Source: a virus
Taxonomy: Duplodnaviria; Heunggongvirae; Uroviricota; Caudoviricetes
IMG/VR virus record: IMGVR_UViG_2563366819_000008
DNA length: 41,089 bases
Reading direction: 5' to 3' (one strand)
Numbering within the stretch: the stretch's first letter is position 1; each line of letters opens with the position of its first letter. The notes beneath the pieces are model-generated. The model saw only the letters and a program-made list of their open reading frames with translations. It searched no databases and was not told the DNA's origin. This document shows, one piece after another, positions 6,526 to 39,835 of this stretch. Both the position numbers and the translations under genes were made by a program.

Positions 6526-6628
6526 GTTAAATCTCCAGATAGTCGCAGCACCCGTTGCGCCGCATATCTGGTTATTCTATTACCTGAAAAACCACATATG
6601 GATAAAAAGACTATAAATACCAATAGAT

Positions 6629-6645
6629 ATTACCTTTCGGGTAAT
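6629..6645. promoter_or_regulatory. Operator-like palindrome ATTACC-TTTCG-GGTAAT
   Basis: Perfect 6-bp inverted repeat with 5-bp spacer in the divergent region between tailspike and 6721 gene; same motif recurs 10 or more times. Confidence 0.6.
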
Positions 6646-6682
6646 TTGCAAAACGTGCTGGATAGCAAACAAATTATTTGTT

Positions 6683-6700
6683 ACTGTATAAACATACAGT
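6683..6700. promoter_or_regulatory. LexA (SOS) box TACTGTATAAACATACAGT
   Basis: CTGT-N8-ACAG with AT-rich centre, about 20 bp upstream of RBS ggagaag and ATG at 6721. Confidence 0.7.
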
Positions 6701-6720
6701 TATTGCATGGAGAAGATAAG

Positions 6721-6978
6721 ATGCAGCAGTATCACTATCCACTGGAAGACGGATTTACCGAAAGGATTCACACGCCGGGAGGCGTCAGGTCACTGGTGGA
6801 GGGATCGCACTTGATGAAATTACTCCGGGATCTCGATAAGGATGGATTTAATGTCGATGGCCCACTTGCCGAACTGACTGCACTGATTAACTACGTCACC
6901 AGCTCACAGATGTCTATGCAGGATCTGCAAACACATCTCGACTATTGTGCCGAACAATTACGAAAACAAACCAGATAA
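6721..6978 (+). CDS. Small SOS-controlled protein, paralogue of the C-terminal domain of the downstream antirepressor
   Basis: 85 aa; about 45 percent identical to the C-terminus of the 7296..7952 product (shared LAELT...DLQTH/DIQTH block); LexA box immediately upstream. Confidence 0.5.
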   Translation: MQQYHYPLEDGFTERIHTPGGVRSLVEGSHLMKLLRDLDKDGFNVDGPLAELTALINYVTSSQMSMQDLQTHLDYCAEQLRKQTR

Positions 6979-7008
6979 GGTTTGCAATTACCAAATGGAG
7001 TGCTTATA

Positions 7009-7025
7009 TTTACCTTTGCGGTAAA
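7009..7025. promoter_or_regulatory. Operator-like palindrome TTTACC-TTTGC-GGTAAA
   Basis: Same TTACC-N5-GGTAA motif. Confidence 0.55.
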
Positions 7026-7115
7026 TTTACATCGCACTCCTCTTGTGCCATAGTAATCGGGCACTGGCAAAATCCAGTGCCGGGATTGGTCTCCCGGATT
7101 ACTAAGTGGCGCATA

Positions 7116-7137
7116 CCACGCCAGACGTGGTTTTTTT
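7116..7137 (+). terminator. Intrinsic terminator (CCACG/CGTGG hairpin plus T7)
   Basis: ccacgccagacgtggttttttt; lies in the 270-bp leader between operator 7009 and ant start 7296. Confidence 0.5.
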
Positions 7138-7295
7138 ATGCGTATAGCACAGTCATGCCAGAATTATGGTGGGCTGAATGGGGGTCCGAAAGGACGCCGG
7201 TACCACTTAGGCCGGTAAGACCAACTCCGTTCAGTTCACCACCATCTGATTGGTCTCAGCGGTGGTGATGTAATTCGCTAAGTGGAGACGCCATC

Positions 7296-7952
7296 ATGAA
7301 CGCTCAACTCATCCCCGTATTCAACGGCACTATATCTAACGAAACAGCCCTACTTTGTAATGCCCGCGATCTGCACGCTTTTTTAGGTGTTAAAAAGGTG
7401 TTTGCAGCATGGATTACAAATCGCATATCAGAATACGAATTCATTGAAAATCAAGACTATATTTTGCTTTCCAATTTGGGAAAGCAAACATCTGGTAGAG
7501 GCGGCCACAACCGCAAAGAGTACCACCTCACCCTTGATACAGCCAAAGAGCTGGCGATGGTCGAGCGTAACGAAAAAGGTCGTCAGGTACGACGCTACTT
7601 CATTGAATGCGAGAAACGTTTAAGACAACAAGAAACAAAAGTGGAGAAGGTCTTGTCAGGCTTCATGCCCGCCATTATGGAGGCGATCAAGCTGGAAGAC
7701 AAAAAAGAATACAGTGCCCCGCTGAAGCCCGGCTACCGCAGCCTGATTCATTCGCCGTCTGGTGTTCTCGGCCTGACGGAGAACTCACTGCTGATGAATC
7801 TGCTGAACCAGTTACAGGAAGACGGGCACGACGTATCGGGCGCGGCGGCGGAGCTGACCACCATGTTCTGCTACATCGTCGGTGTGAGCAAATGCCTGCG
7901 TGATATCCAGACGCACGCGGAGTACATCAACGACAAGGCAGGGTTCTTCTGA
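7296..7952 (+). CDS. Antirepressor (AntA-like N-terminal domain)
   Basis: N-terminal LIPVFNG...[10 protein letters not shown]...[16 protein letters not shown] resembles AntA/Rha-type antirepressor domains; lies in an immI-like position next to tailspike. Confidence 0.6.
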
Positions 7953-8023
7953 CGGGCGGTGGCACAGGGATGTGCCTTTAAATAATTCTGTACAGATTGC
8001 AGACTGTGGGTGAATAGCGTACT

Positions 8024-8040
8024 ATTACCTTAAAGGTAAA
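8024..8040. promoter_or_regulatory. Operator-like palindrome ATTACC-TTAAA-GGTAAA abutting an RBS
   Basis: Motif followed immediately by ggaggcgcgat ATG (8052). Confidence 0.55.
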
Positions 8041-8051
8041 GGAGGCGCGAT

Positions 8052-8219
8052 ATGACAGCGTTGAAAAATCGTACTCAGCACAATGAACAAGCCAAGCAAT
8101 GCTGGGATGTCATTGGAAAAGTTATGCTTGGCCGCGCAAGCAAAGAGCGCGACAAGGATATGGTTTACCAGACAGGAACATCTTTCAGCGACTTCAAGGC
8201 GGCATTTCGCTCCAAATAG
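8052..8219 (+). CDS. Hypothetical small protein (55 aa)
   Basis: ATG with strong RBS aaaggagg; below the ORF-track size cutoff, translated by hand. Confidence 0.35.
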   Translation: MTALKNRTQHNEQAKQCWDVIGKVMLGRASKERDKDMVYQTGTSFSDFKAAFRSK

Positions 8220-8239
8220 AAGCACATCAGGAGTTTTCC

Positions 8240-8680
8240 TTGAAGTTTAACATTAGAATATCTAATAGTTTTCTACATGGGGAAAGCAACACCCCTTTCG
8301 CTGTAGACGGACCTTTCCTTACTGATGATGAAATAAAAATCATACAAAGTTTTTTAGAGGATGTTGCCAATGGAAGGGCGCTTGTTGGAAAAAACAAGCC
8401 CTCGTGGGTTGATGATAACCATGATAAAATTCCCGGCTCAGACAATTATGAGCAAGAGAATTATTGGCATTATCATTGTGGGCCAACATGGTATCCAAAC
8501 ACATTTAAGAATTATACCATTAACTTAAATTTCAACCCTGGCGGAAGGCATTCTAATGAATGCATTCATTATGCAAAAAATGATAATGAAATTGTCATTG
8601 TTGGATTTTCAAGAGAACACATACCTTTCCTTTCATCAGATGGAAACAACAATCCGCTTTTTAATGATGAAGAAGAATAG
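8240..8680 (+). CDS. Hypothetical protein, AT-rich, probable TTG start, no internal Met
   Basis: In-frame TTG at 8240 with RBS caggag 6 nt upstream; upstream part of the 8099 ORF overlaps the 55-aa gene and looks non-coding; terminator follows. Confidence 0.4.
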   Translation: MKFNIRISNSFLHGESNTPFAVDGPFLTDDEIKIIQSFLEDVANGRALVGKNKPSWVDDNHDKIPGSDNYEQENYWHYHCGPTWYPNTFKNYTINLNFNPGGRHSNECIHYAKNDNEIVIVGFSREHIPFLSSDGNNNPLFNDEEE

Positions 8681-8700
8681 CCCGCGCTGCGGGCTTTTTT
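8680..8700 (+). terminator. Intrinsic terminator (GCCCGC/GCGGGC hairpin plus T6)
   Basis: agcccgcgctgcgggctttttt right after the 8680 stop. Confidence 0.65.
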
Positions 8701-8772
8701 GTGGACGAAACAAAAGTCAGTGCTACACTCATTGACGCCACATTGAGGTGGCTTATAGATGGAAATTTCACA

Positions 8773-8934
8773 ATGAAAAAAGCATTTGCTGCACTGTTCG
8801 TTTTGTTGTCTCTGGTAGCTTCAACTCAGGCCTTTGCCGGTCGTTGTCAGCACGACAGCGATACTGCCGCTGACGGCTCCCGCTGCGGTGGGCGTTCTGC
8901 GGATTCCCGCCCGGGTGGCGGTGGCATTCGTTAA
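8773..8934 (+). CDS. Small secreted peptide (53 aa, about 31-aa mature part with 2 Cys)
   Basis: Start at internal MKKAFAALFVLLSLVASTQAFA signal peptide; Gly/Arg-rich C-terminus. Confidence 0.35.
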   Translation: MKKAFAALFVLLSLVASTQAFAGRCQHDSDTAADGSRCGGRSADSRPGGGGIR

Positions 8935-8957: not shown

Positions 8958-8969
8958 GTGACATGTCAC
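8958..8969. repeat. 12-bp perfect palindrome GTGACATGTCAC (copy 1 of 3)
   Basis: Contains the TGA stop of the 8966..9346 lipoprotein gene; adjacent to terminator hairpin. Confidence 0.8.
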
Positions 8970-17374: not shown

Positions 17375-19845
17375 CAGAACCCACCAACAGTAAGGCGAGG
17401 AATAACGGCAAGAACAGACAGCGGCAACGGATCAAGCTGACGGATTTTTACACGTCCGTTTTTGCCCCAGTTACTGTCCAGTTTCACTTCTACTTTTCCG
17501 GTAGCATCATCAACAGGATCATCGTAGAACTCGAATTCACGCTGTGGATATTCGTACCATTTACCGCCGGGCGTAGTCGCCCAGATGCCGCGACTGGCAT
17601 TCACAACCAGAGTAACGGACGGGATCACCTGTTTTTTGTCCAGCAGCGTTTCCTGTCCGTTAATGTTGATATCCAGTGTTTCGAATTCAGCAGTTATTGG
17701 CAGGCCGATGTGCACTACAGCCCCCGGTGATTCCAGCGTGACGGCACCTCCGGAAACCACTTTCTGTGGTTCCACGTTCGCATCAGAGAGAATGTTTACG
17801 GTCTGGCCTTCAAGATGAGACAGGCCTCCAAATGTCCGGCGCGCCATCTGCCAGTTCGTGGTGGCCACATTCCTGAGGGATGGCGGGACGTTCCTGTTAG
17901 CACGAACCACTACAGCGGTATTGCTGGTTACAGAAATAATGTCGCAACGTAATTCTTTTGACACCTCATCGCCAGTATCAGGATCAGTTCCGGTATAAGG
18001 GAACTGTAGTTGCGCGCCGACATCACTACTGGTGAAGTACGCACCACCAGAAACACTGATTGTATATTCCGCGCGGTAATCCCATTCGCCAGAACCACCA
18101 GTGATGATCATCGTTCTGTCAGACGTATTTCTTCCATCATAGCTAAGGCCAGAATCAACAAAGAAAGCATCTTCATCGCTGGTAAATAAACGGCTGGACA
18201 GTCGCTCGATGTATCTCACTGTTTGCCCGTTAACGGTTCGGTTAACGACGAAATACACCGCATCTTCATTGCCTTCGCTGATACTGCATGTGCTTTCATA
18301 TTTTCCGGTACTGGATTGTGGTGCCCATGCAAAAACCTGCTGATCACGCAAATAGGTCATCACCAGTAATTTACCGTCATCACGAATGCAAAAGGCACTG
18401 GAGTAAGGGACAATCGAGAAGCACCAGTCAACAATGCTGTGCTTCTGAAAAAGATGATTGGCAAGGATGGTCAGGTCGTTCCCCTGATAGCCGTCAACAT
18501 CAAATGAGTAGGCCAGATCACGGACAACGCTGCCTTTCTCCTGGACGAACAGAGCAATATTCGCCACGGCAATTGGCGGGACGTTGCTTGAGCCATTTGA
18601 TCCCTGAGAGCTGAATGCGAATGATGATGGGGTAAGCACTTTGTTCTGGTCGCCGGTGATGACGTACTCACCTCCGGAAGTCAGCGCCACCAGCGAACCG
18701 ACATCAATCAGGTGGCGGATCTCATTAACCTGACGCCCGGCATAGGTGTAGATAATTCTGTCGTCATCCTGCGTAGGATTGCTTTTGCCAAAATCCTTAT
18801 AATCCCCGGTACGGCTGGCCCAGATAGTCTGAGGAAACGCAGTCGATGCGGCGAAGTAAAGACGTTGTTGATAATAAACAACAGTGCCAGGATAACCATT
18901 AACACTGTTCCAGGCATATTTAGCCCATTTATAGCTGGCATTATCCTCGCCAACTACCTGCGAAGGGATATAGGAAATCACCTCGGCAGTTGCAGTAGTT
19001 CCATTTGCAGCAGAGATACGGGCAATGCCAAAACCACTGTGCAGATACTCCCACTCAATGCCGGTATCATCATCACCGGATCCGCCCCAGCCATCCCATG
19101 ATGTGCCTTCTGTATGCGAAGGGCGCAAAGTGCCTGTTTTGCCTACTGTAACGGCGCGATAGTAGTTACTGTCTGCACGGCGAATATCGCCAATTGACGT
19201 ACTCTTACTGGTTTCCCATACCGGCACAGAATCCACTGCAGGCTGTTCCAGATAGAACAATTTGCCTACCTGCTCCGCGCCAAAAATAGAGGCGCTTGCC
19301 GTTAACGTAATTGTCCCGGTGCTGGCGCTGGCATAAACCGTCACTGACTCGTCAATATTGATATCTTCAAATGGTCCGTTCTTCGTTACCACATCAACCA
19401 GTTGCCAGTTGTCATGCGCATAGCGACGCAACTCTTTCGGCGGGTATGCCGGATGAACAAGCGTAAGCACGTCGGCGCTTTGCGTGAATTTAATTCGGAA
19501 CAGATCGGCTTCAGTATATGGCGTGGCAATTTCATAAATAACATTGCTGCTGTTCAGCACCAACGCACCATCTTTGATAACGCGCATGTACTGGTGTCCG
19601 AACTCCAGAGCATAGGTCTGAACCGTCGAGAACTGGAACGGGATCAGGCGGCATTTCCGATTTGGGTATTTGGCGGCACCGACAAAACGCGTACCTGGTC
19701 GATTCTCAACGCCGCCATACTGCCGCACGATAAAGTTATCGCACTTGCGCAATGCCACCTGGTACTTCGCCATGTCAATACGCCCGTACAACGACGGTCC
19801 AATCTCACCACCGGCAAAGCTGGGCTGGATCCAACTGATAGCCAT
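17374..19845 (-). CDS. Tail tubular protein B-like (nozzle), 823 aa
   Basis: Size and position immediately after a tail tubular A-like gene. Confidence 0.5.
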   Translation of the reverse strand: MAISWIQPSFAGGEIGPSLYGRIDMAKYQVALRKCDNFIVRQYGGVENRPGTRFVGAAKYPNRKCRLIPFQFSTVQTYALEFGHQYMRVIKDGALVLNSSNVIYEIATPYTEADLFRIKFTQSADVLTLVHPAYPPKELRRYAHDNWQLVDVVTKNGPFEDINIDESVTVYASASTGTITLTASASIFGAEQVGKLFYLEQPAVDSVPVWETSKSTSIGDIRRADSNYYRAVTVGKTGTLRPSHTEGTSWDGWGGSGDDDTGIEWEYLHSGFGIARISAANGTTATAEVISYIPSQVVGEDNASYKWAKYAWNSVNGYPGTVVYYQQRLYFAASTAFPQTIWASRTGDYKDFGKSNPTQDDDRIIYTYAGRQVNEIRHLIDVGSLVALTSGGEYVITGDQNKVLTPSSFAFSSQGSNGSSNVPPIAVANIALFVQEKGSVVRDLAYSFDVDGYQGNDLTILANHLFQKHSIVDWCFSIVPYSSAFCIRDDGKLLVMTYLRDQQVFAWAPQSSTGKYESTCSISEGNEDAVYFVVNRTVNGQTVRYIERLSSRLFTSDEDAFFVDSGLSYDGRNTSDRTMIITGGSGEWDYRAEYTISVSGGAYFTSSDVGAQLQFPYTGTDPDTGDEVSKELRCDIISVTSNTAVVVRANRNVPPSLRNVATTNWQMARRTFGGLSHLEGQTVNILSDANVEPQKVVSGGAVTLESPGAVVHIGLPITAEFETLDININGQETLLDKKQVIPSVTLVVNASRGIWATTPGGKWYEYPQREFEFYDDPVDDATGKVEVKLDSNWGKNGRVKIRQLDPLPLSVLAVIPRLTVGGF

Positions 19846-25551: not shown

Positions 25552-25640
25552 ATCAATGACTCCGTACGCAATTAAATTATTACCAATTTAACCACATATG
25601 ATTTATTTATCGTAGACAGTTGACATTTAACGCGCGAATT

Positions 25641-26680: not shown

Positions 26681-26692
26681 GTGACATGTCAC
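26681..26692. repeat. 12-bp perfect palindrome GTGACATGTCAC (copy 2 of 3)
   Basis: Between the 26676 stop and the terminator hairpin. Confidence 0.8.
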
Positions 26693-26697
26693 AATCA

Positions 26698-26721
26698 GCC
26701 CGCCGATTCGCGGGCTTTTTT
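26698..26721 (+). terminator. Intrinsic terminator GCCCGC-cgattc-GCGGGC plus T6
   Basis: Overlaps the 3' end of terL on the other strand. Confidence 0.65.
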
Positions 26722-28195
26722 ATGCAAAAGGATCATAGTCTGTGATGGCTTTGCCTTGCTGGTTCTGCTGCCCGGGAATTCGCAGACGCTTCGACACAGG
26801 GAACGCAAACGTCAGCAGTAGCGCATCGCCTTTACCCGGCGAACGCCCAAGCCGCTCCTTGATATCTTCCTTCGGTTCGATAACGATTTTACCGTCCACA
26901 CGAACTTTGTACTCTGCTGCCGACAGGTCGTCCGCTGTTTCCTGGTCATCCAGCATGCCGCCGAGCCTCAGCCATGTCTTGCATGAGTTGAACATCTCCC
27001 CACGCTTGTTAAGCATCTGCGGGTCAGTAGACGCGCCACCGAACGGAACAAGTTGCCATGTACGACCCCAGCCGTCACCGATTGACTTCAAACCGGTTCC
27101 GTAACCGAAGTCGATGAACACCGCGTCAGCCTGATACTGGTCTTCAAAGTCAGCGATACGCTTCGCCATAATCAGATCGTCGGTAGTCTTGTTGCCAGTC
27201 CACAGCACCTTACTGTGTAGCCCCTGCCGCAGGTATATCACAGCGTCATCAACGCCGGAGTATGCCGGGTCAACGCCGATTATCACCGGAGCATGTGCAA
27301 CCTGCGCAGCGGTTACCACCCGTTTCATTGCCTCGTCAGTAAGACCGGTAGGGATAAACTGCAATTCAGATGCATCAGGGAATATGCCACGCACACGGAT
27401 TTTAACGAAGTCGCTGTCTTCCCCGTAGTCATCAACCCATTTCTGCAACTGCTGTTTGTTGGTACCTTCCACCGTCCGACTGTCAATCTGCGCAGTTTTC
27501 CAGCGGTGTTTATACTTGCGGAAACATTCACGGAAACGTCCGGTGTTACGAGTAGGGTTTCCGAACGCCACCCAGATAATCTCAGTGTCTTCGTCCGTAA
27601 GCGCACCCTCAGCAACTTCCCACACCAGATCCGCAATGTTCGACGCTTCATCGAATACCACGATGATGCGTTTGCGCTCGTTGTGTAGTCCGGCGAATGC
27701 CTCAGTGTTGTGCTCAGACCAGGGGATTGCGTCAGCTCGCCACCGCTTGTCGTGCCCAGGATCATTGCTGTACATCGCGGTAGCGGTACAGGTAAACCAG
27801 TCTTTCGTGATAGCAAGGTTCGACCACTTGATAATTTCCGGCCAGGTCTTCGTTCGTAGCTGGTTGTCGGTGTTGGCGGTCACCACGACCTTACAATCCT
27901 CGCAAGTGGACATGCCCCAGTTGATCAACATTGAGATGAATGCTGATTTACCAATACCGTGGCCCGAAGCACGTGCCAGCATAAGCGGCTGATAGCGCGT
28001 CTCGGGATTCTGCAGGTGATCACGTATCTCTCGGAACGCATCGGCCTGCCACTGACGTGGGCCGGTAGCATGTGCCAGTTCAGTCCCCTCTTCCCCCCAC
28101 GGGAACGCATAGAGGGCATAGCCAAGCGGATCGTGAGTGAACCCTGCAATATCCTCGATCAACTGCTCTTCAGGAGATAACGCTGCATCTGTCAC
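26720..28195 (-). CDS. Terminase large subunit
   Basis: Walker A-like GHGIGKSAF, ATPase then nuclease domain organisation; overlaps TerS stop. Confidence 0.85.
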   Translation of the reverse strand: MTDAALSPEEQLIEDIAGFTHDPLGYALYAFPWGEEGTELAHATGPRQWQADAFREIRDHLQNPETRYQPLMLARASGHGIGKSAFISMLINWGMSTCEDCKVVVTANTDNQLRTKTWPEIIKWSNLAITKDWFTCTATAMYSNDPGHDKRWRADAIPWSEHNTEAFAGLHNERKRIIVVFDEASNIADLVWEVAEGALTDEDTEIIWVAFGNPTRNTGRFRECFRKYKHRWKTAQIDSRTVEGTNKQQLQKWVDDYGEDSDFVKIRVRGIFPDASELQFIPTGLTDEAMKRVVTAAQVAHAPVIIGVDPAYSGVDDAVIYLRQGLHSKVLWTGNKTTDDLIMAKRIADFEDQYQADAVFIDFGYGTGLKSIGDGWGRTWQLVPFGGASTDPQMLNKRGEMFNSCKTWLRLGGMLDDQETADDLSAAEYKVRVDGKIVIEPKEDIKERLGRSPGKGDALLLTFAFPVSKRLRIPGQQNQQGKAITDYDPFA

Positions 28196-28788
28196 TGATT
28201 ACCATCCTGACGTTCTTTGAGTCGCTTCCTGGCTGCTGCTATGCGATCAGCAATTGTCACATTCACATTAACATCCAGACGTTCTTTGAACGCGTTGACA
28301 TCAACATGCTTACCAATCAGCTCAAGGTTCTTCACCTTGTCAGGCCATTTAATTTTTTTGAGGATTGTCTCTATCGAATCCTCGTTCATGTTCATGATGG
28401 TCGATGACAGATCAAAGCCACTAAGCGTAGTGCGCCAGATTTTCGGCCACTCACGGATTGGTTTAAGGCTCCCATCGTCGTTGAGGATGTCGATCACATC
28501 CATCTGGTCGATCTCCACCAGGCGCATAAGAACGTAATCGGCACTGACGCGCATTCGTTTGTTGCGCTCCTCCATCAGCTCGGCAATCCGTTTTTGAATG
28601 CGTTCATCGCGCATCATGACACTGGCTTTAACTGCCGCTGTATTTGGGGAGAATCCTGCGTTAATCGCTGCCTGAGTCTGGTTTTCAGGCGTTTTGATGT
28701 ATGACTGGCAATAAGCCTCCTGCATTGCTGTTAGTGGCTTAAATTGCGTTGATTTGCGTTTATAGGTTTTAGGTTCAGCAGGCATCAT
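28192..28788 (-). CDS. Terminase small subunit (start moved to MMPAEPK)
   Basis: Position upstream of TerL; track ORF begins at a TTG inside tandem repeats that translate to low-complexity TITTTVTITT, so the ATG at 28788 is preferred. Confidence 0.6.
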   Translation of the reverse strand: MMPAEPKTYKRKSTQFKPLTAMQEAYCQSYIKTPENQTQAAINAGFSPNTAAVKASVMMRDERIQKRIAELMEERNKRMRVSADYVLMRLVEIDQMDVIDILNDDGSLKPIREWPKIWRTTLSGFDLSSTIMNMNEDSIETILKKIKWPDKVKNLELIGKHVDVNAFKERLDVNVNVTIADRIAAARKRLKERQDGNQ

Positions 28789-28795
28789 AACCACC

Positions 28796-28827
28796 GTGGT
28801 AATAGTTACCGTTGTGGTAATAGTACC
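28796..28827. repeat. Tandem everted half-site repeats GTGGTAATAGTTACC / GTGGTAATAGTACC
   Basis: GGTAA-tag-TTACC uses the same half-sites as the operator motif but in everted order, just upstream of terS. Confidence 0.6.
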
Positions 28828-28830
28828 ATG

Positions 28831-28857
28831 CAAAATAAAGCCGCCATAGTTGGCGGC
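28831..28857 (-). terminator. Minus-strand intrinsic terminator GCCGCC-loop-GGCGGC plus UUUAUUUUG in the late leader (tR'-like)
   Basis: Located between the zinc-finger gene stop and terS start. Confidence 0.55.
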
Positions 28858-28898
28858 AGTATTCAAAACCCGTCAAATTCATCATGCATAATCTACTC

Positions 28899-28910
28899 GT
28901 GACATGTCAC
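28899..28910. repeat. 12-bp perfect palindrome GTGACATGTCAC (copy 3 of 3)
   Basis: Contains the TGA stop of the 28907..29248 gene; about 50 bp upstream of the tR'-like hairpin. Confidence 0.8.
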
Positions 28911-29248
28911 ACTATTAATTTCGTTTCATGCCAGCCTTTAGTCACCCAGCATTGCGAGTCACCATTACACGGGCATGAATTAACTGGAACTCTCTCGCCG
29001 CACTTACCGCAACGTTTTCTGCTGATCGATTTTATACGCCCGCGCACGCGTGCATCATCCTGGCGGATCAGTAACGCTATATACTCACCAAATTCGTAAG
29101 GCGCACGCCCGGGGCGACGCGTGGCACAGTTACGCTCCAGCATTTCAATTTCCTGAGCATCAAGCACAATTTCCAGCTTACGCACACCAGATGCAGCTTG
29201 TCTGGCTCTCTGAGCGGCTTTGCGCTCTGCTGCTGATTTAGCCATCAA
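28907..29248 (-). CDS. Zinc-finger protein (Cys cluster CGKCG...CPCNG...C), late-regulator candidate
   Basis: Last gene before the late leader; basic N-terminus; function inferred from position only. Confidence 0.4.
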   Translation of the reverse strand: MMAKSAAERKAAQRARQAASGVRKLEIVLDAQEIEMLERNCATRRPGRAPYEFGEYIALLIRQDDARVRGRIKSISRKRCGKCGERVPVNSCPCNGDSQCWVTKGWHETKLIV

Positions 29249-31913: not shown

Positions 31914-31930
31914 ATTACCCATCAGGTAAT
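31914..31930. promoter_or_regulatory. Operator-like palindrome ATTACC-CATCA-GGTAAT
   Basis: Perfect 17-bp site between P-like gene end and nuclease gene. Confidence 0.6.
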
Positions 31931-33852: not shown

Positions 33853-33869
33853 ATTACCTTTGAGGTACG
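33853..33869. promoter_or_regulatory. Operator-like site ATTACC-TTTGA-GGTACG (one mismatch)
   Basis: Between Cro-like gene and the next gene. Confidence 0.45.
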
Positions 33870-33923
33870 AATAGATATGAAAAGACCGCCGGGTGGCGGT
33901 CTACAGAGGGTTGTAGCTGGATA

Positions 33924-34190: not shown

Positions 34191-34254
34191 TCACCCATAA
34201 GGTAACAAAAATCAAGGATAGTTACCTATGAGGTGCATTTACCTGTTGGGTAAT
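34191..34254. promoter_or_regulatory. Divergent immunity promoter region with three operator sites (two imperfect, one perfect TTTACC-TGTTG-GGTAAT at 34238-34254)
   Basis: TCACC-cataa-GGTAA, TTACC-tatga-GGTGC and a perfect site between the Cro-like and repressor genes. Confidence 0.6.
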
Positions 34255-34308: not shown

Positions 34309-34893
34309 ATGAAAAGTATCCAGGACGTCCGCAGGCAAAATCTCAACGACTTGATCGACCGTGAATTCAATGGTGTTCAGACGCGGATGGCAGAAAAACT
34401 TGGAACTCAGGCAAATCTGGTAAACCGCTGGGCTCTTGGCAAGAAGGTTATCGGCGACCAGGTTGCACGAAAAATTGAAGCTGCCGCCAATAAACCCCGT
34501 AACTGGCTTGATATCGATCGCTCGCTTTCTCAGGAAGGTTTTCAGCCTGTCGGCCCAAGCGACATTGGCCAGCTGGCGGCTCACAACCTGGAACGCTGGA
34601 TGAGCGAAAGCCGCGACCTTTCAACACAGGGAAAACTTCACCGCGCATCCGGCGTAGCCCAGGTGACAATCAGCCGCCTGTTAAACAATGAGGTCAGCGT
34701 TTCCATTTCCACCCTGGAGAATGTTGCATCCGCATTCGGGCGTCACGGCTATGAATTACTGATTCACCCGCACGACCCTGCGACCATCAACTATGATCGC
34801 TCGCGCTACGCATTGTTACCCGAAACCGAGAAAGCAAAGATCGAAAGTTACATTGAATTTGTCATCAACCAGAACGAAAAAAACAAACAATAA
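34309..34893 (+). CDS. Repressor-position protein with two tandem HTH domains and no LexA-like autopeptidase domain
   Basis: Two HTH_XRE-like segments (QTRMAEKLGTQANLVNRW and HRASGVAQVTISRLL); divergent from cro; own terminator. Confidence 0.55.
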   Translation: MKSIQDVRRQNLNDLIDREFNGVQTRMAEKLGTQANLVNRWALGKKVIGDQVARKIEAAANKPRNWLDIDRSLSQEGFQPVGPSDIGQLAAHNLERWMSESRDLSTQGKLHRASGVAQVTISRLLNNEVSVSISTLENVASAFGRHGYELLIHPHDPATINYDRSRYALLPETEKAKIESYIEFVINQNEKNKQ

Positions 34894-34949: not shown

Positions 34950-34966
34950 ATTACCTAACGGGTAAT
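34950..34966. promoter_or_regulatory. Operator ATTACC-TAACG-GGTAAT (early-left promoter)
   Basis: Perfect 17-bp palindrome. Confidence 0.6.
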
Positions 34967-37495: not shown

Positions 37496-37652
37496 GTGCG
37501 CTGCTAAGGCACTGGAGCAAATGGTCAGGATGGTACTTATTCCTGGCCTCTGTTTCAGCATGGCTTTATCTGCTGGCATTAATTTTCAGAGAGGGTTGGA
37601 TTAAGTGAGAAAGTTAAGCCGACTTGAAAAATATCACATGAACAAGGTTTCA

Positions 37653-37904
37653 ATGCGCAGCCATTCAAAGGTTGTTGCCGTTACTCCTGCGGCGATAGAG
37701 ATCGAAAAACGCGCGATTGAAAGAGAGAAAAAAGGGCAGTTCCGCATTGCCGCCCACCTTTGGCTTCAGTGTATGGATGTTGCTTCTGGTGATGTTGAGC
37801 GTGCAAGGATCGCGGTTCGAAGGGACCAATGTATCACAAAAGGTAACGGCCTTCGCCGTGGCGACTATAGCGGTATAGGATGTTGCGGGGTGGTTTATGA
37901 ATAA
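37653..37904 (+). CDS. PerC-family-like small regulator (tentative)
   Basis: Block FRIAAHLWLQCMD...ERARIAVRRDQC resembles the PerC/Pch family as recalled; start chosen at ATG with aagg RBS. Confidence 0.4.
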   Translation: MRSHSKVVAVTPAAIEIEKRAIEREKKGQFRIAAHLWLQCMDVASGDVERARIAVRRDQCITKGNGLRRGDYSGIGCCGVVYE

Positions 37905-39644: not shown

Positions 39645-39835
39645 ACAGGGCATCACCAGCAGATTTAAGAAAATGCCTTGAAACTGCAAACATGCTTGCA
39701 CACAGCGGGATCAGGTTTGTTCCAATTCCCGCTGTCACTGATGCTGAATTTGCAACACTGTCAGCAATATTCGAAAACAAAATTGAATCACTGGCAGCAG
39801 AAGCAGAGATGGAAGAAAATCAGCAGAACTATTAA
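39641..39835 (+). CDS. Small protein (64 aa) coupled to the methyltransferase
   Basis: ATG overlaps the MTase TGA (ATGA). Confidence 0.4.
   Translation: MNRASPADLRKCLETANMLAHSGIRFVPIPAVTDAEFATLSAIFENKIESLAAEAEMEENQQNY

Follow-up and report, generated by a model that had tools for sequence, protein, structure and literature searches.

Predicted Rep operators and a candidate extended −10 promoter upstream of terS at the early/late boundary of a phiV10/epsilon15-like prophage

Introduction

The closest described counterpart of the region examined here, positions 28789 to 29248 of a 41089-nt virus record (IMG/VR IMGVR_UViG_2563366819_000008; the whole of this stretch is referred to as the window), is found in Salmonella phage epsilon15. 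There, a stop codon (that of gp49) lying in the palindrome GTGACATGTCAC is followed by a terminator, the sequence TGtTACTAT, the site TTACC-AAAAC-GGTAA, a second such site 18 bp further on and the ATG of terS, the gene for the small terminase subunit. The window has the same order of elements. It differs in sequence (approximately 75% DNA identity) and in the length of the spacer between palindrome and terminator (22 nt in epsilon15, 41 nt in the window). The same terminator and a repressor site are already annotated in the epsilon15 record, making the junction an ordinary one for this phage group; the record annotates no palindrome, no promoter and no proximal operator. Here we examine how terS and the adjacent late genes may be controlled at this junction, and propose that they are transcribed from a candidate promoter overlapped by predicted operators of the prophage repressor, Rep.

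The Rep/Ant switch of SPC32H was reportedly described by Kim and Ryu in 2013 and by Kim et al. in 2016. PMC9638917 describes SPC32H Rep as binding palindromic sites in the form of a tetramer and as being released by the antirepressor Ant. The window resembles this system in having a full-length Rep homologue together with LexA-box antirepressor genes (6682–6700 and 6722–7952). In phage P1 (C1) and mycobacteriophage L5 (gp71), one repressor likewise has sites at many transcription units, including those for late functions. The sites in the window differ from these in being symmetric 15-bp palindromes that are often paired, 17–18 or 62 bp apart, and the repressor belongs to an unrelated family and is of the antirepressor-inactivated kind. 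The lambda pR′–qut–tR′ region shares with the window an early/late junction containing an intrinsic terminator. In contrast to lambda, the terminator in the window precedes the candidate promoter, no Q-family protein was recognized among the window proteins scanned against Pfam or PHROGs, and the lysis genes are not at the junction.

Results

The window can be assigned from its sequence to the phiV10/epsilon15-like (Uetakevirus) prophages, which are temperate podoviruses. Over a 2-kb stretch around the junction, it was 97–98% identical to the phiV10-like Escherichia coli podoviruses PAS61, O157 typing phages 9 and 10, TL-2011b, ZX5 and phiV10, and approximately 75–80% identical to epsilon15 and its relatives. 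The paper describing ZX5 gives no operator or late-promoter data. On the minus strand, early replication and nin-like genes are followed by a gene encoding a protein of 112 aa (phiV10 p55, epsilon15 gp49), then by terS (Terminase_2) and terL, and the interval is predicted to be the boundary between the early-right operon and the packaging and structural (late) operon. A sequence-only reading of this stretch had proposed that the late operon begins here, which is supported. The features on which that reading was built, a zinc-finger gene, a palindrome, a terminator and a set of repeats, were all recovered on the minus strand with matching coordinates (Table 1). No Rfam family was detected over the region, the only match being a sub-threshold one attributable to chance (rseX, 27 bits against a threshold of 50).

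Upstream of terS, two copies of GTGGTAATAGT are found at 28796 and 28814, 18 bp apart, and exact matches to GTGGTAATAG in the window were limited to the two repeat positions. These had been described as everted repeats of the half-sites of the immunity operator. They are built from those half-sites, but the everted register was not upheld, as one repeat contributes its right arm and the following repeat its left arm to a perfect canonical operator, TTACC-GTTGT-GGTAA. This distal site and the proximal site, which has one mismatch, are 18 bp apart, as they are in epsilon15, BUCT554 and Tyrion. The proximal site overlaps both the Shine–Dalgarno sequence (GGTGG) and the first ATG of terS, and is less conserved among the Salmonella and Klebsiella relatives.

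When all combinations of half-site and spacer were enumerated blind across the window, TTACC-N5-GGTAA was the clear top motif, with 10 exact copies against 0.04 expected under an order-2 Markov model. None of the ten lies inside a confidently assigned gene. They were located in the rep–cro region, downstream of rep, within the antirepressor block, and before each of the DUF1064/resolvase gene, terS and the gp3/portal block. Three operators, at 34191, 34222 and 34239 (two exact plus near-matches), separate rep from cro (34154–33924, minus strand), and two more, at 34951 and 35013, are found downstream of rep. The same motif also ranked top in epsilon15, SPN1S, BUCT554 and Tyrion (8–11 copies each). 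It was absent from phages ZF40, N15 and Chlobot, in which tblastn found no Rep homologue. In the epsilon15 RefSeq record (NC_004775.2), seven of these sites are labelled 'protein_bind: repressor', including the one at 12–27 just upstream of terS. Because the motif flanks rep, recurs in intergenic control regions and far exceeds expectation, the repeats upstream of terS are predicted to be two Rep operators of the Uetakevirus (epsilon15/SPC32H) type. The earlier suggestion that the repeats couple repressor binding to control of terS and the late genes is very probable and is well supported.

The Rep protein encoded in the window shares 42% identity over its full length with epsilon15 gp38 and matches the SPC32H Rep structure (PDB 5D50) with an E value of 4e-42. 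It has two helix-turn-helix-type Pfam matches (residues 21–61 and 106–147) and no S24 peptidase domain, which fits inactivation by an antirepressor rather than RecA-mediated cleavage. On the plus strand, an immI-like block (6598–8934) separates the tailspike gene from the end of the structural operon. In this block, a perfect LexA box, TACTGTATAAACATACAGT (6682–6700), precedes a small antirepressor-like gene whose ATG is at 6722; a gene encoding a 218-aa Ant (7296–7952) and Rep operators at 6630, 7010 and 8025 are also present. On the minus strand at 33854–33905, the cro stop codon is followed by a hairpin terminator and then by a one-mismatch operator (GTACC-TCAAA-GGTAA) before the next gene, the same order as at terS.

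Two promoters that are predicted to be under Rep control can be readily recognized in the window. The promoter downstream of rep (PL; TTGACA-17-AATTAT) is associated with the operators at 34951 and 35013, and a promoter before the DUF1064 gene at 31.9 kb (TTGATT-17-TTTAAT) with those at 31915 and 31853. In both, the first operator is located 19 nt before the −35 and the second starts on the last T of the −10. Both operator pairs are perfect, are exactly 62 bp apart and bracket a sigma-70 promoter, in what appears to be a repeated 'cassette'. The sequence TACTAT upstream of terS, preceded by TGg, sits in the same register to its operator as the −10 elements of these two promoters. TGgTACTAT also has the features expected of an extended −10 sigma-70 promoter, namely TGn followed by a hexamer with T1, A2 and T6.

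Natural variation at this site was examined using loci retrieved with a single gp49-family protein, which yielded only loci 97–100% identical; these 80 closely related loci, together with epsilon15-type and Klebsiella relatives, gave 21 distinct sequences. Across the 21, which come from E. coli, Salmonella and Klebsiella relatives, no change was seen in the TG, in the TA..AT of the −10 or in any of the ten half-site bases of the distal operator. The variable positions were the 'n' of TGn (G, T or A), hexamer position 3 (C or T), the operator spacers and the bases between the operators. Among the close E. coli-type relatives, all eight variable positions in a 46-nt stretch fell within its 21 'free' positions, for which C(21,8)/C(46,8) is approximately 8e-4. 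Tyrion has TGgTACTAT, and in BUCT554 the element is TGaTAGTAT followed by two operators, though the terminator is missing there. This pattern of conservation is typical of a functional extended −10 promoter, and TGgTACTAT is the best candidate for, and probably is, the terS/terL promoter. Candidate late promoters were also seen on the minus strand before the gp3/portal block (25580–25594) and before the tailspike gene (approximately 6556–6570). They share CATATGTGGTT-N5-GGTAATA, a degenerate operator (TGGTT-N5-GGTAA) adjoining a −10-like hexamer.

Because the first ATG of terS, at 28788, is lost in two natural variants (L035 and L057, which have ATT) and epsilon15 has a single ATG, matching 28785, the likely start codon is the second ATG, at 28785. 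In public records, terS was found to start too far upstream, at a TTG in phiV10 (41–715 in NC_007804.2) and, in SPN1S (1–669 in NC_016761.1), at an ATG that is part of the terminator hairpin. The start codon, mis-set in several public records, is thereby corrected.

Table 1. Features of the early/late junction and related elements in the window
Feature	Coordinates	Strand	Remarks
gp49-family open reading frame (ORF), Cys-rich, 112/113 aa	28907..29245 (29248)	−	last gene of the early-right operon
palindrome GTGACATGTCAC, copy 1	28899..28910	both	perfect 12 bp, overlaps the TGA stop codon of the gp49-family gene
ORF remnant MHDEFDGF*, eight codons	28863..28889	−	remnant of the 66-codon ORF in 'long-form' relatives
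intrinsic terminator	28832..28857	−	stem 28857-28840, U-tract 28839-28832
candidate extended −10, TGgTACTAT	28820..28828	−	final T also begins the distal operator
distal predicted Rep operator, TTACC-GTTGT-GGTAA	28806..28820	both	perfect match
proximal predicted Rep operator, TAACC-ACCGT-GGTAA	28788..28802	both	one mismatch
terS (Terminase_2 family)	28192..28785	−	Pfam PF03592, E = 1e-29
palindrome, copy 2	26681..26692	both	between the stop codons of terL and of a convergent gene
palindrome, copy 3	8958..8969	both	overlaps the TGA of the last minus-strand gene of the structural gene run
rep (prophage repressor)	34309..34893	+	homology to epsilon15 gp38 and PDB 5D50

The terminator consists of a 7-bp stem (GCCGCCA/TGGCGGC) with six G–C pairs and a 4-nt loop, followed by UUUAUUUU. 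Its RNA fold was calculated at −16.8 kcal/mol (z = −3.0 against shuffled sequences), and near-identical hairpins are annotated as rho-independent terminators in epsilon15 (39646–39672) and in phiV10. The spacer between the palindrome and the terminator varies greatly. The 22-nt form of epsilon15 is also found in PAT1 and SPN1S, while many E. coli relatives have 227 nt with a 66-codon ORF, and in Enterobacter and Klebsiella relatives it is approximately 330–400 nt long, with a small gene and a promoter that carries a LexA box. BUCT554 and ST512 have such a LexA-box promoter (TACTGTTTAAATGTACAGTA) and a small gene at this place. Alignment of the 80 related loci revealed a 175-nt and a 361-nt form that differ by 186 nt, in frame, with both ends shared, and the 41 nt in the window can be recognized as the in-frame deletion remnant of the 66-codon ORF.

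The sequence-only reading had arranged these elements as a promoter, a leader and a tR′-like terminator that needs antitermination. This is not supported by the comparison, as the spacer is unconserved (22 to approximately 400 nt) and filled by an ORF in relatives, and the sole conserved promoter-like element is downstream of the terminator. There is no conserved promoter upstream of the terminator, which is better read as simply closing the early operon, upstream of the candidate terS promoter, and not as a leader terminator. The stretch that follows it, of approximately 45 bp, contains the candidate extended −10. Of the window proteins compared with Pfam or PHROGs, none resembled Q, N or Ogr.

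The palindrome GTGACATGTCAC is present in three exact copies in the window against 0.02 expected, and was the second match in the de novo palindrome search. Each copy follows a stop codon and precedes an intrinsic terminator by 0–41 nt, as read along the transcript that is terminated. At copy 2, a plus-strand terminator (26697–26716) starts 4 nt beyond the palindrome, and at copy 3 a minus-strand terminator (8957–8940) abuts it at the end of the structural operon. All three copies have syntenic counterparts in epsilon15 (copy 3 at 19517), SPN1S, BUCT554 and Tyrion. The gene-end palindrome is kept in epsilon15, SPN1S, PAT1, ST512, Tyrion and BUCT554 (GTGACAGGTCAC), and also in ZF40, Chlobot and N15 (GTGACTGGTCAC). 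The last codon of the gp49-family gene varies (GTG, ATG or CTG) while the palindrome is unchanged, indicating a constraint on the DNA. The linear GenBank record of Enterobacter phage Tyrion opens exactly at the centre of the palindrome (GTGACA|TGTCAC), which is probably an annotation convention.

Outside the Uetakeviruses, exactly three copies of the palindrome were found in ZF40, one of them directly after gp22. N15 has three copies of the variant GTGAC(TG/CA)GTCAC, one over the stop codon of gene 46, and Chlobot has one copy, directly after its intact gp49-family homologue. The only clear match to a window protein in ZF40 and in the compared part of N15 was the gp49/gp46-family gene. Because the palindrome accompanies this gene in three unrelated phage types, it is probably the DNA target of the gp49-family protein, the two forming a cognate site–protein pair. 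In N15 (NC_001901.1), the copy at 28550–28561 lies between the stop codon of gene 33 and a stem-loop upstream of genes 32–30, again near a terminator and a regulatory region; gene 30 is annotated as the anti-repressor Ant. Two other roles for the palindrome were considered and rejected. A site for an activator of the terS promoter was discounted because its distance to the −10 varies from approximately 73 to approximately 420 bp among relatives, and CRP and LexA were discounted as binders on half-site spacing. Full-text searches of the available literature with the palindrome sequences returned unrelated primers only. The palindrome and the gp49-family protein are most likely such a cognate pair, with a role separate from the terS promoter.

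The gp49-family gene belongs to phrog_536 (E = 1.6e-54) and shares 99% DNA identity with phiV10 p55. The family comprises 154 clusters at 50% identity. Its cysteines are spaced C-X2-C-X8-C-X-C-X5-C, and C79, C82 and C99 were invariant or nearly so in 38 diverse homologues. No Pfam family scored above threshold and no similarity to the Q or Ogr families was detected; the Ogr_Delta motif of the P2 Ogr/Delta activators has a different spacing (C-X2-C-X22-C-X4-C). The N-terminal part gave weak ribbon-helix-helix (RHH) matches that are below the family cut-offs, to NF008671 in 9 of the 38 members (best E = 5.6e-5) and to RHH_5 in two, and matched the YbfE, RHH_5 and RepB regulator models weakly as well. 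A short palindromic target would fit this fold, and the weak matches recall phage and bacterial RHH regulators such as P22 Arc and Mnt, CopG and E. coli YbfE; the gp49-family protein differs from these in having sub-threshold matches throughout and an extra Cys-rich C-terminal module. AlphaFold models built with alignments of 20 and 39 homologues had mean predicted confidence scores (pLDDT) of 62.7 and 61.6 and left the strand unresolved, too poor for a fold search, and a profile search of PDB sequences with the family gave no match. The protein consists of a putative RHH N-terminal part and a Cys-rich, zinc-ribbon-like C-terminal part.

Homologues of the gp49-family gene occupy varied genome positions. 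In the myovirus ZF40, the homologue is in the nin region and the phage has its own Q-like gp25. In the lambda-like Chlobot, it is in the early-left region of a genome that carries N- and Q-like genes, and in N15 it is gene 46 (gp46, 35% identical), with gene 40 being Q-like. Further homologues were found in P2-like Yersinia phages and in Vibrio and Aeromonas phages. Given these positions, the adjacency of the gene to terS can be regarded as a peculiarity of the Uetakeviruses. The zinc-finger protein had been singled out as the late regulator because of where its gene lies. That argument is not supported, as the homologues in ZF40, N15 and Chlobot coexist with Q-like genes and are far from terS and the late operon; the protein may still have a regulatory role.

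Discussion

We think it reasonably probable that the terminator closes the early transcript and that terS and terL start from their own extended −10 promoter under two Rep operators. This model draws on the observed sequence features, their statistical excess, the conservation pattern and the Rep homology, and from these we predict that Rep binds at the terS site, that the promoter is active and that events occur in the following order. In a lysogen, Rep on the operator pair would prevent transcription from starting at the terS promoter and would also stop any read-through of the terminator, with the distal operator covering the expected transcription start and the proximal operator the ribosome-binding site of terS. 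Upon SOS induction, all operators would be cleared of Rep at once by the LexA-controlled antirepressor, after which transcription of terS, terL and the genes beyond them would proceed from their own promoter.

Several observations weigh against this model. No usable −35 precedes terS, by scan or by eye (TATGGC is found at 17 bp), and a sigma-70 promoter with a −35 was rejected on these grounds. The candidate −10 matches the consensus at four of six positions and was not reported by a generic promoter scan. With this −10 and no −35, the promoter could have low activity or depend on an activator. Under control by Rep alone, early and late genes would be switched on together, and an extra timing factor, for example the PerC-like activator (37605–37904) or the gp49-family protein, may be involved. 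The operator sequence is identical in the five Uetakevirus genomes compared (epsilon15, SPN1S, BUCT554, Tyrion and the window), leaving no co-variation of repressor and operator to compare, and the basis of the 'repressor' label in the epsilon15 record could not be checked.

An alternative built on the sequence-only reading is that a late promoter near the palindrome produces a leader that stops at the terminator unless the zinc-finger protein, loading at the palindrome, acts as a Q-like antiterminator. The terminator is real, and a weak promoter-like sequence (GTGACA-18-CATGAT, 9/12) begins in the palindrome. In the Uetakeviruses, the gp49-family gene comes last among the early genes and adjoins terS. 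All three palindromes in the window lie shortly (0–41 nt) upstream of an intrinsic terminator, and the Pfam and PHROGs scans recognized no other antiterminator among the window proteins. The arrangement is nevertheless quite improbable. The 22-nt spacer of epsilon15 has no room for a promoter and leader, the 41 nt in the window are the remnant of an ORF, the spacers of relatives hold an ORF or a LexA-controlled gene, and copy 3 abuts its terminator with no promoter space. The family shows no similarity to Q or Ogr, and in ZF40, N15 and Chlobot its members are found alongside genuine Q-like genes and away from the late operon.

The operators could instead act as 'stoperator'-like roadblocks that, together with the terminator, stop read-through in the lysogen, the late genes then being expressed by read-through once Rep is removed. 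The order of terminator then operator does recur downstream of cro (33854), the P-like gene (31915/31853) and rep (34951), and the terS promoter candidate is weak and lacks a −35. However, a strong terminator would still block read-through after removal of Rep, and no antiterminator was found among the window proteins scanned. The conservation of the extended −10 is typical of a functional promoter, and at PL and at 31.9 kb operators laid out in the same way clearly flank sigma-70 promoters. The sites are also perfect palindromes without an asymmetric orientation bias, unlike the orientation-dependent stoperators known from L5. We consider this explanation unlikely as a replacement for control at a terS promoter, with which a roadblock is compatible as an additional effect. 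The repeats have a further possible parallel in phage SPP1, whose small terminase G1P recognizes boxes that are repeated at the 5′ end of the G1P gene. A pacL-like packaging site recognized by the small terminase would suit the position of the repeats directly at the terS start and the membership of terS in the Terminase_2/SPP1 G1P–SF6 family (Pfam; also an HHpred note in the epsilon15 record). The motif is, however, identical to the sites flanking rep and recurs at approximately 10 intergenic control regions across the genome, which a packaging site would not, and the homologous epsilon15 site carries the 'repressor' label, with the reservation about its basis given above. A packaging function for the repeats is therefore very improbable. 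Initiation at the candidate extended −10 promoter under Rep control is the explanation we prefer to each of these.

If this model is correct, it offers a testable picture of a non-lambdoid temperate podovirus that silences its packaging and structural genes directly by the immunity repressor. The one new lead is the link between the palindrome and the gp49 family, seen as three copies per genome in the Uetakeviruses, in the myovirus ZF40 and in the linear-plasmid prophage N15. It assigns a likely DNA target to an uncharacterized protein family, and points to a link with terminators at operon boundaries. The three palindrome-linked terminators of the Uetakeviruses lie immediately before terS, immediately after terL and where the structural operon ends. 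As a speculation that we hold to be doubtful, the gp49/gp46-family proteins may be GTGAC-N2-GTCAC binders that travel as a gene-plus-site cassette, are made last in the early operon and tune termination or read-through at these three terminators. If true, this would represent a DNA-site-directed control of terminators unlike that of lambda N or Q, and would supply the missing device for early-to-late timing.

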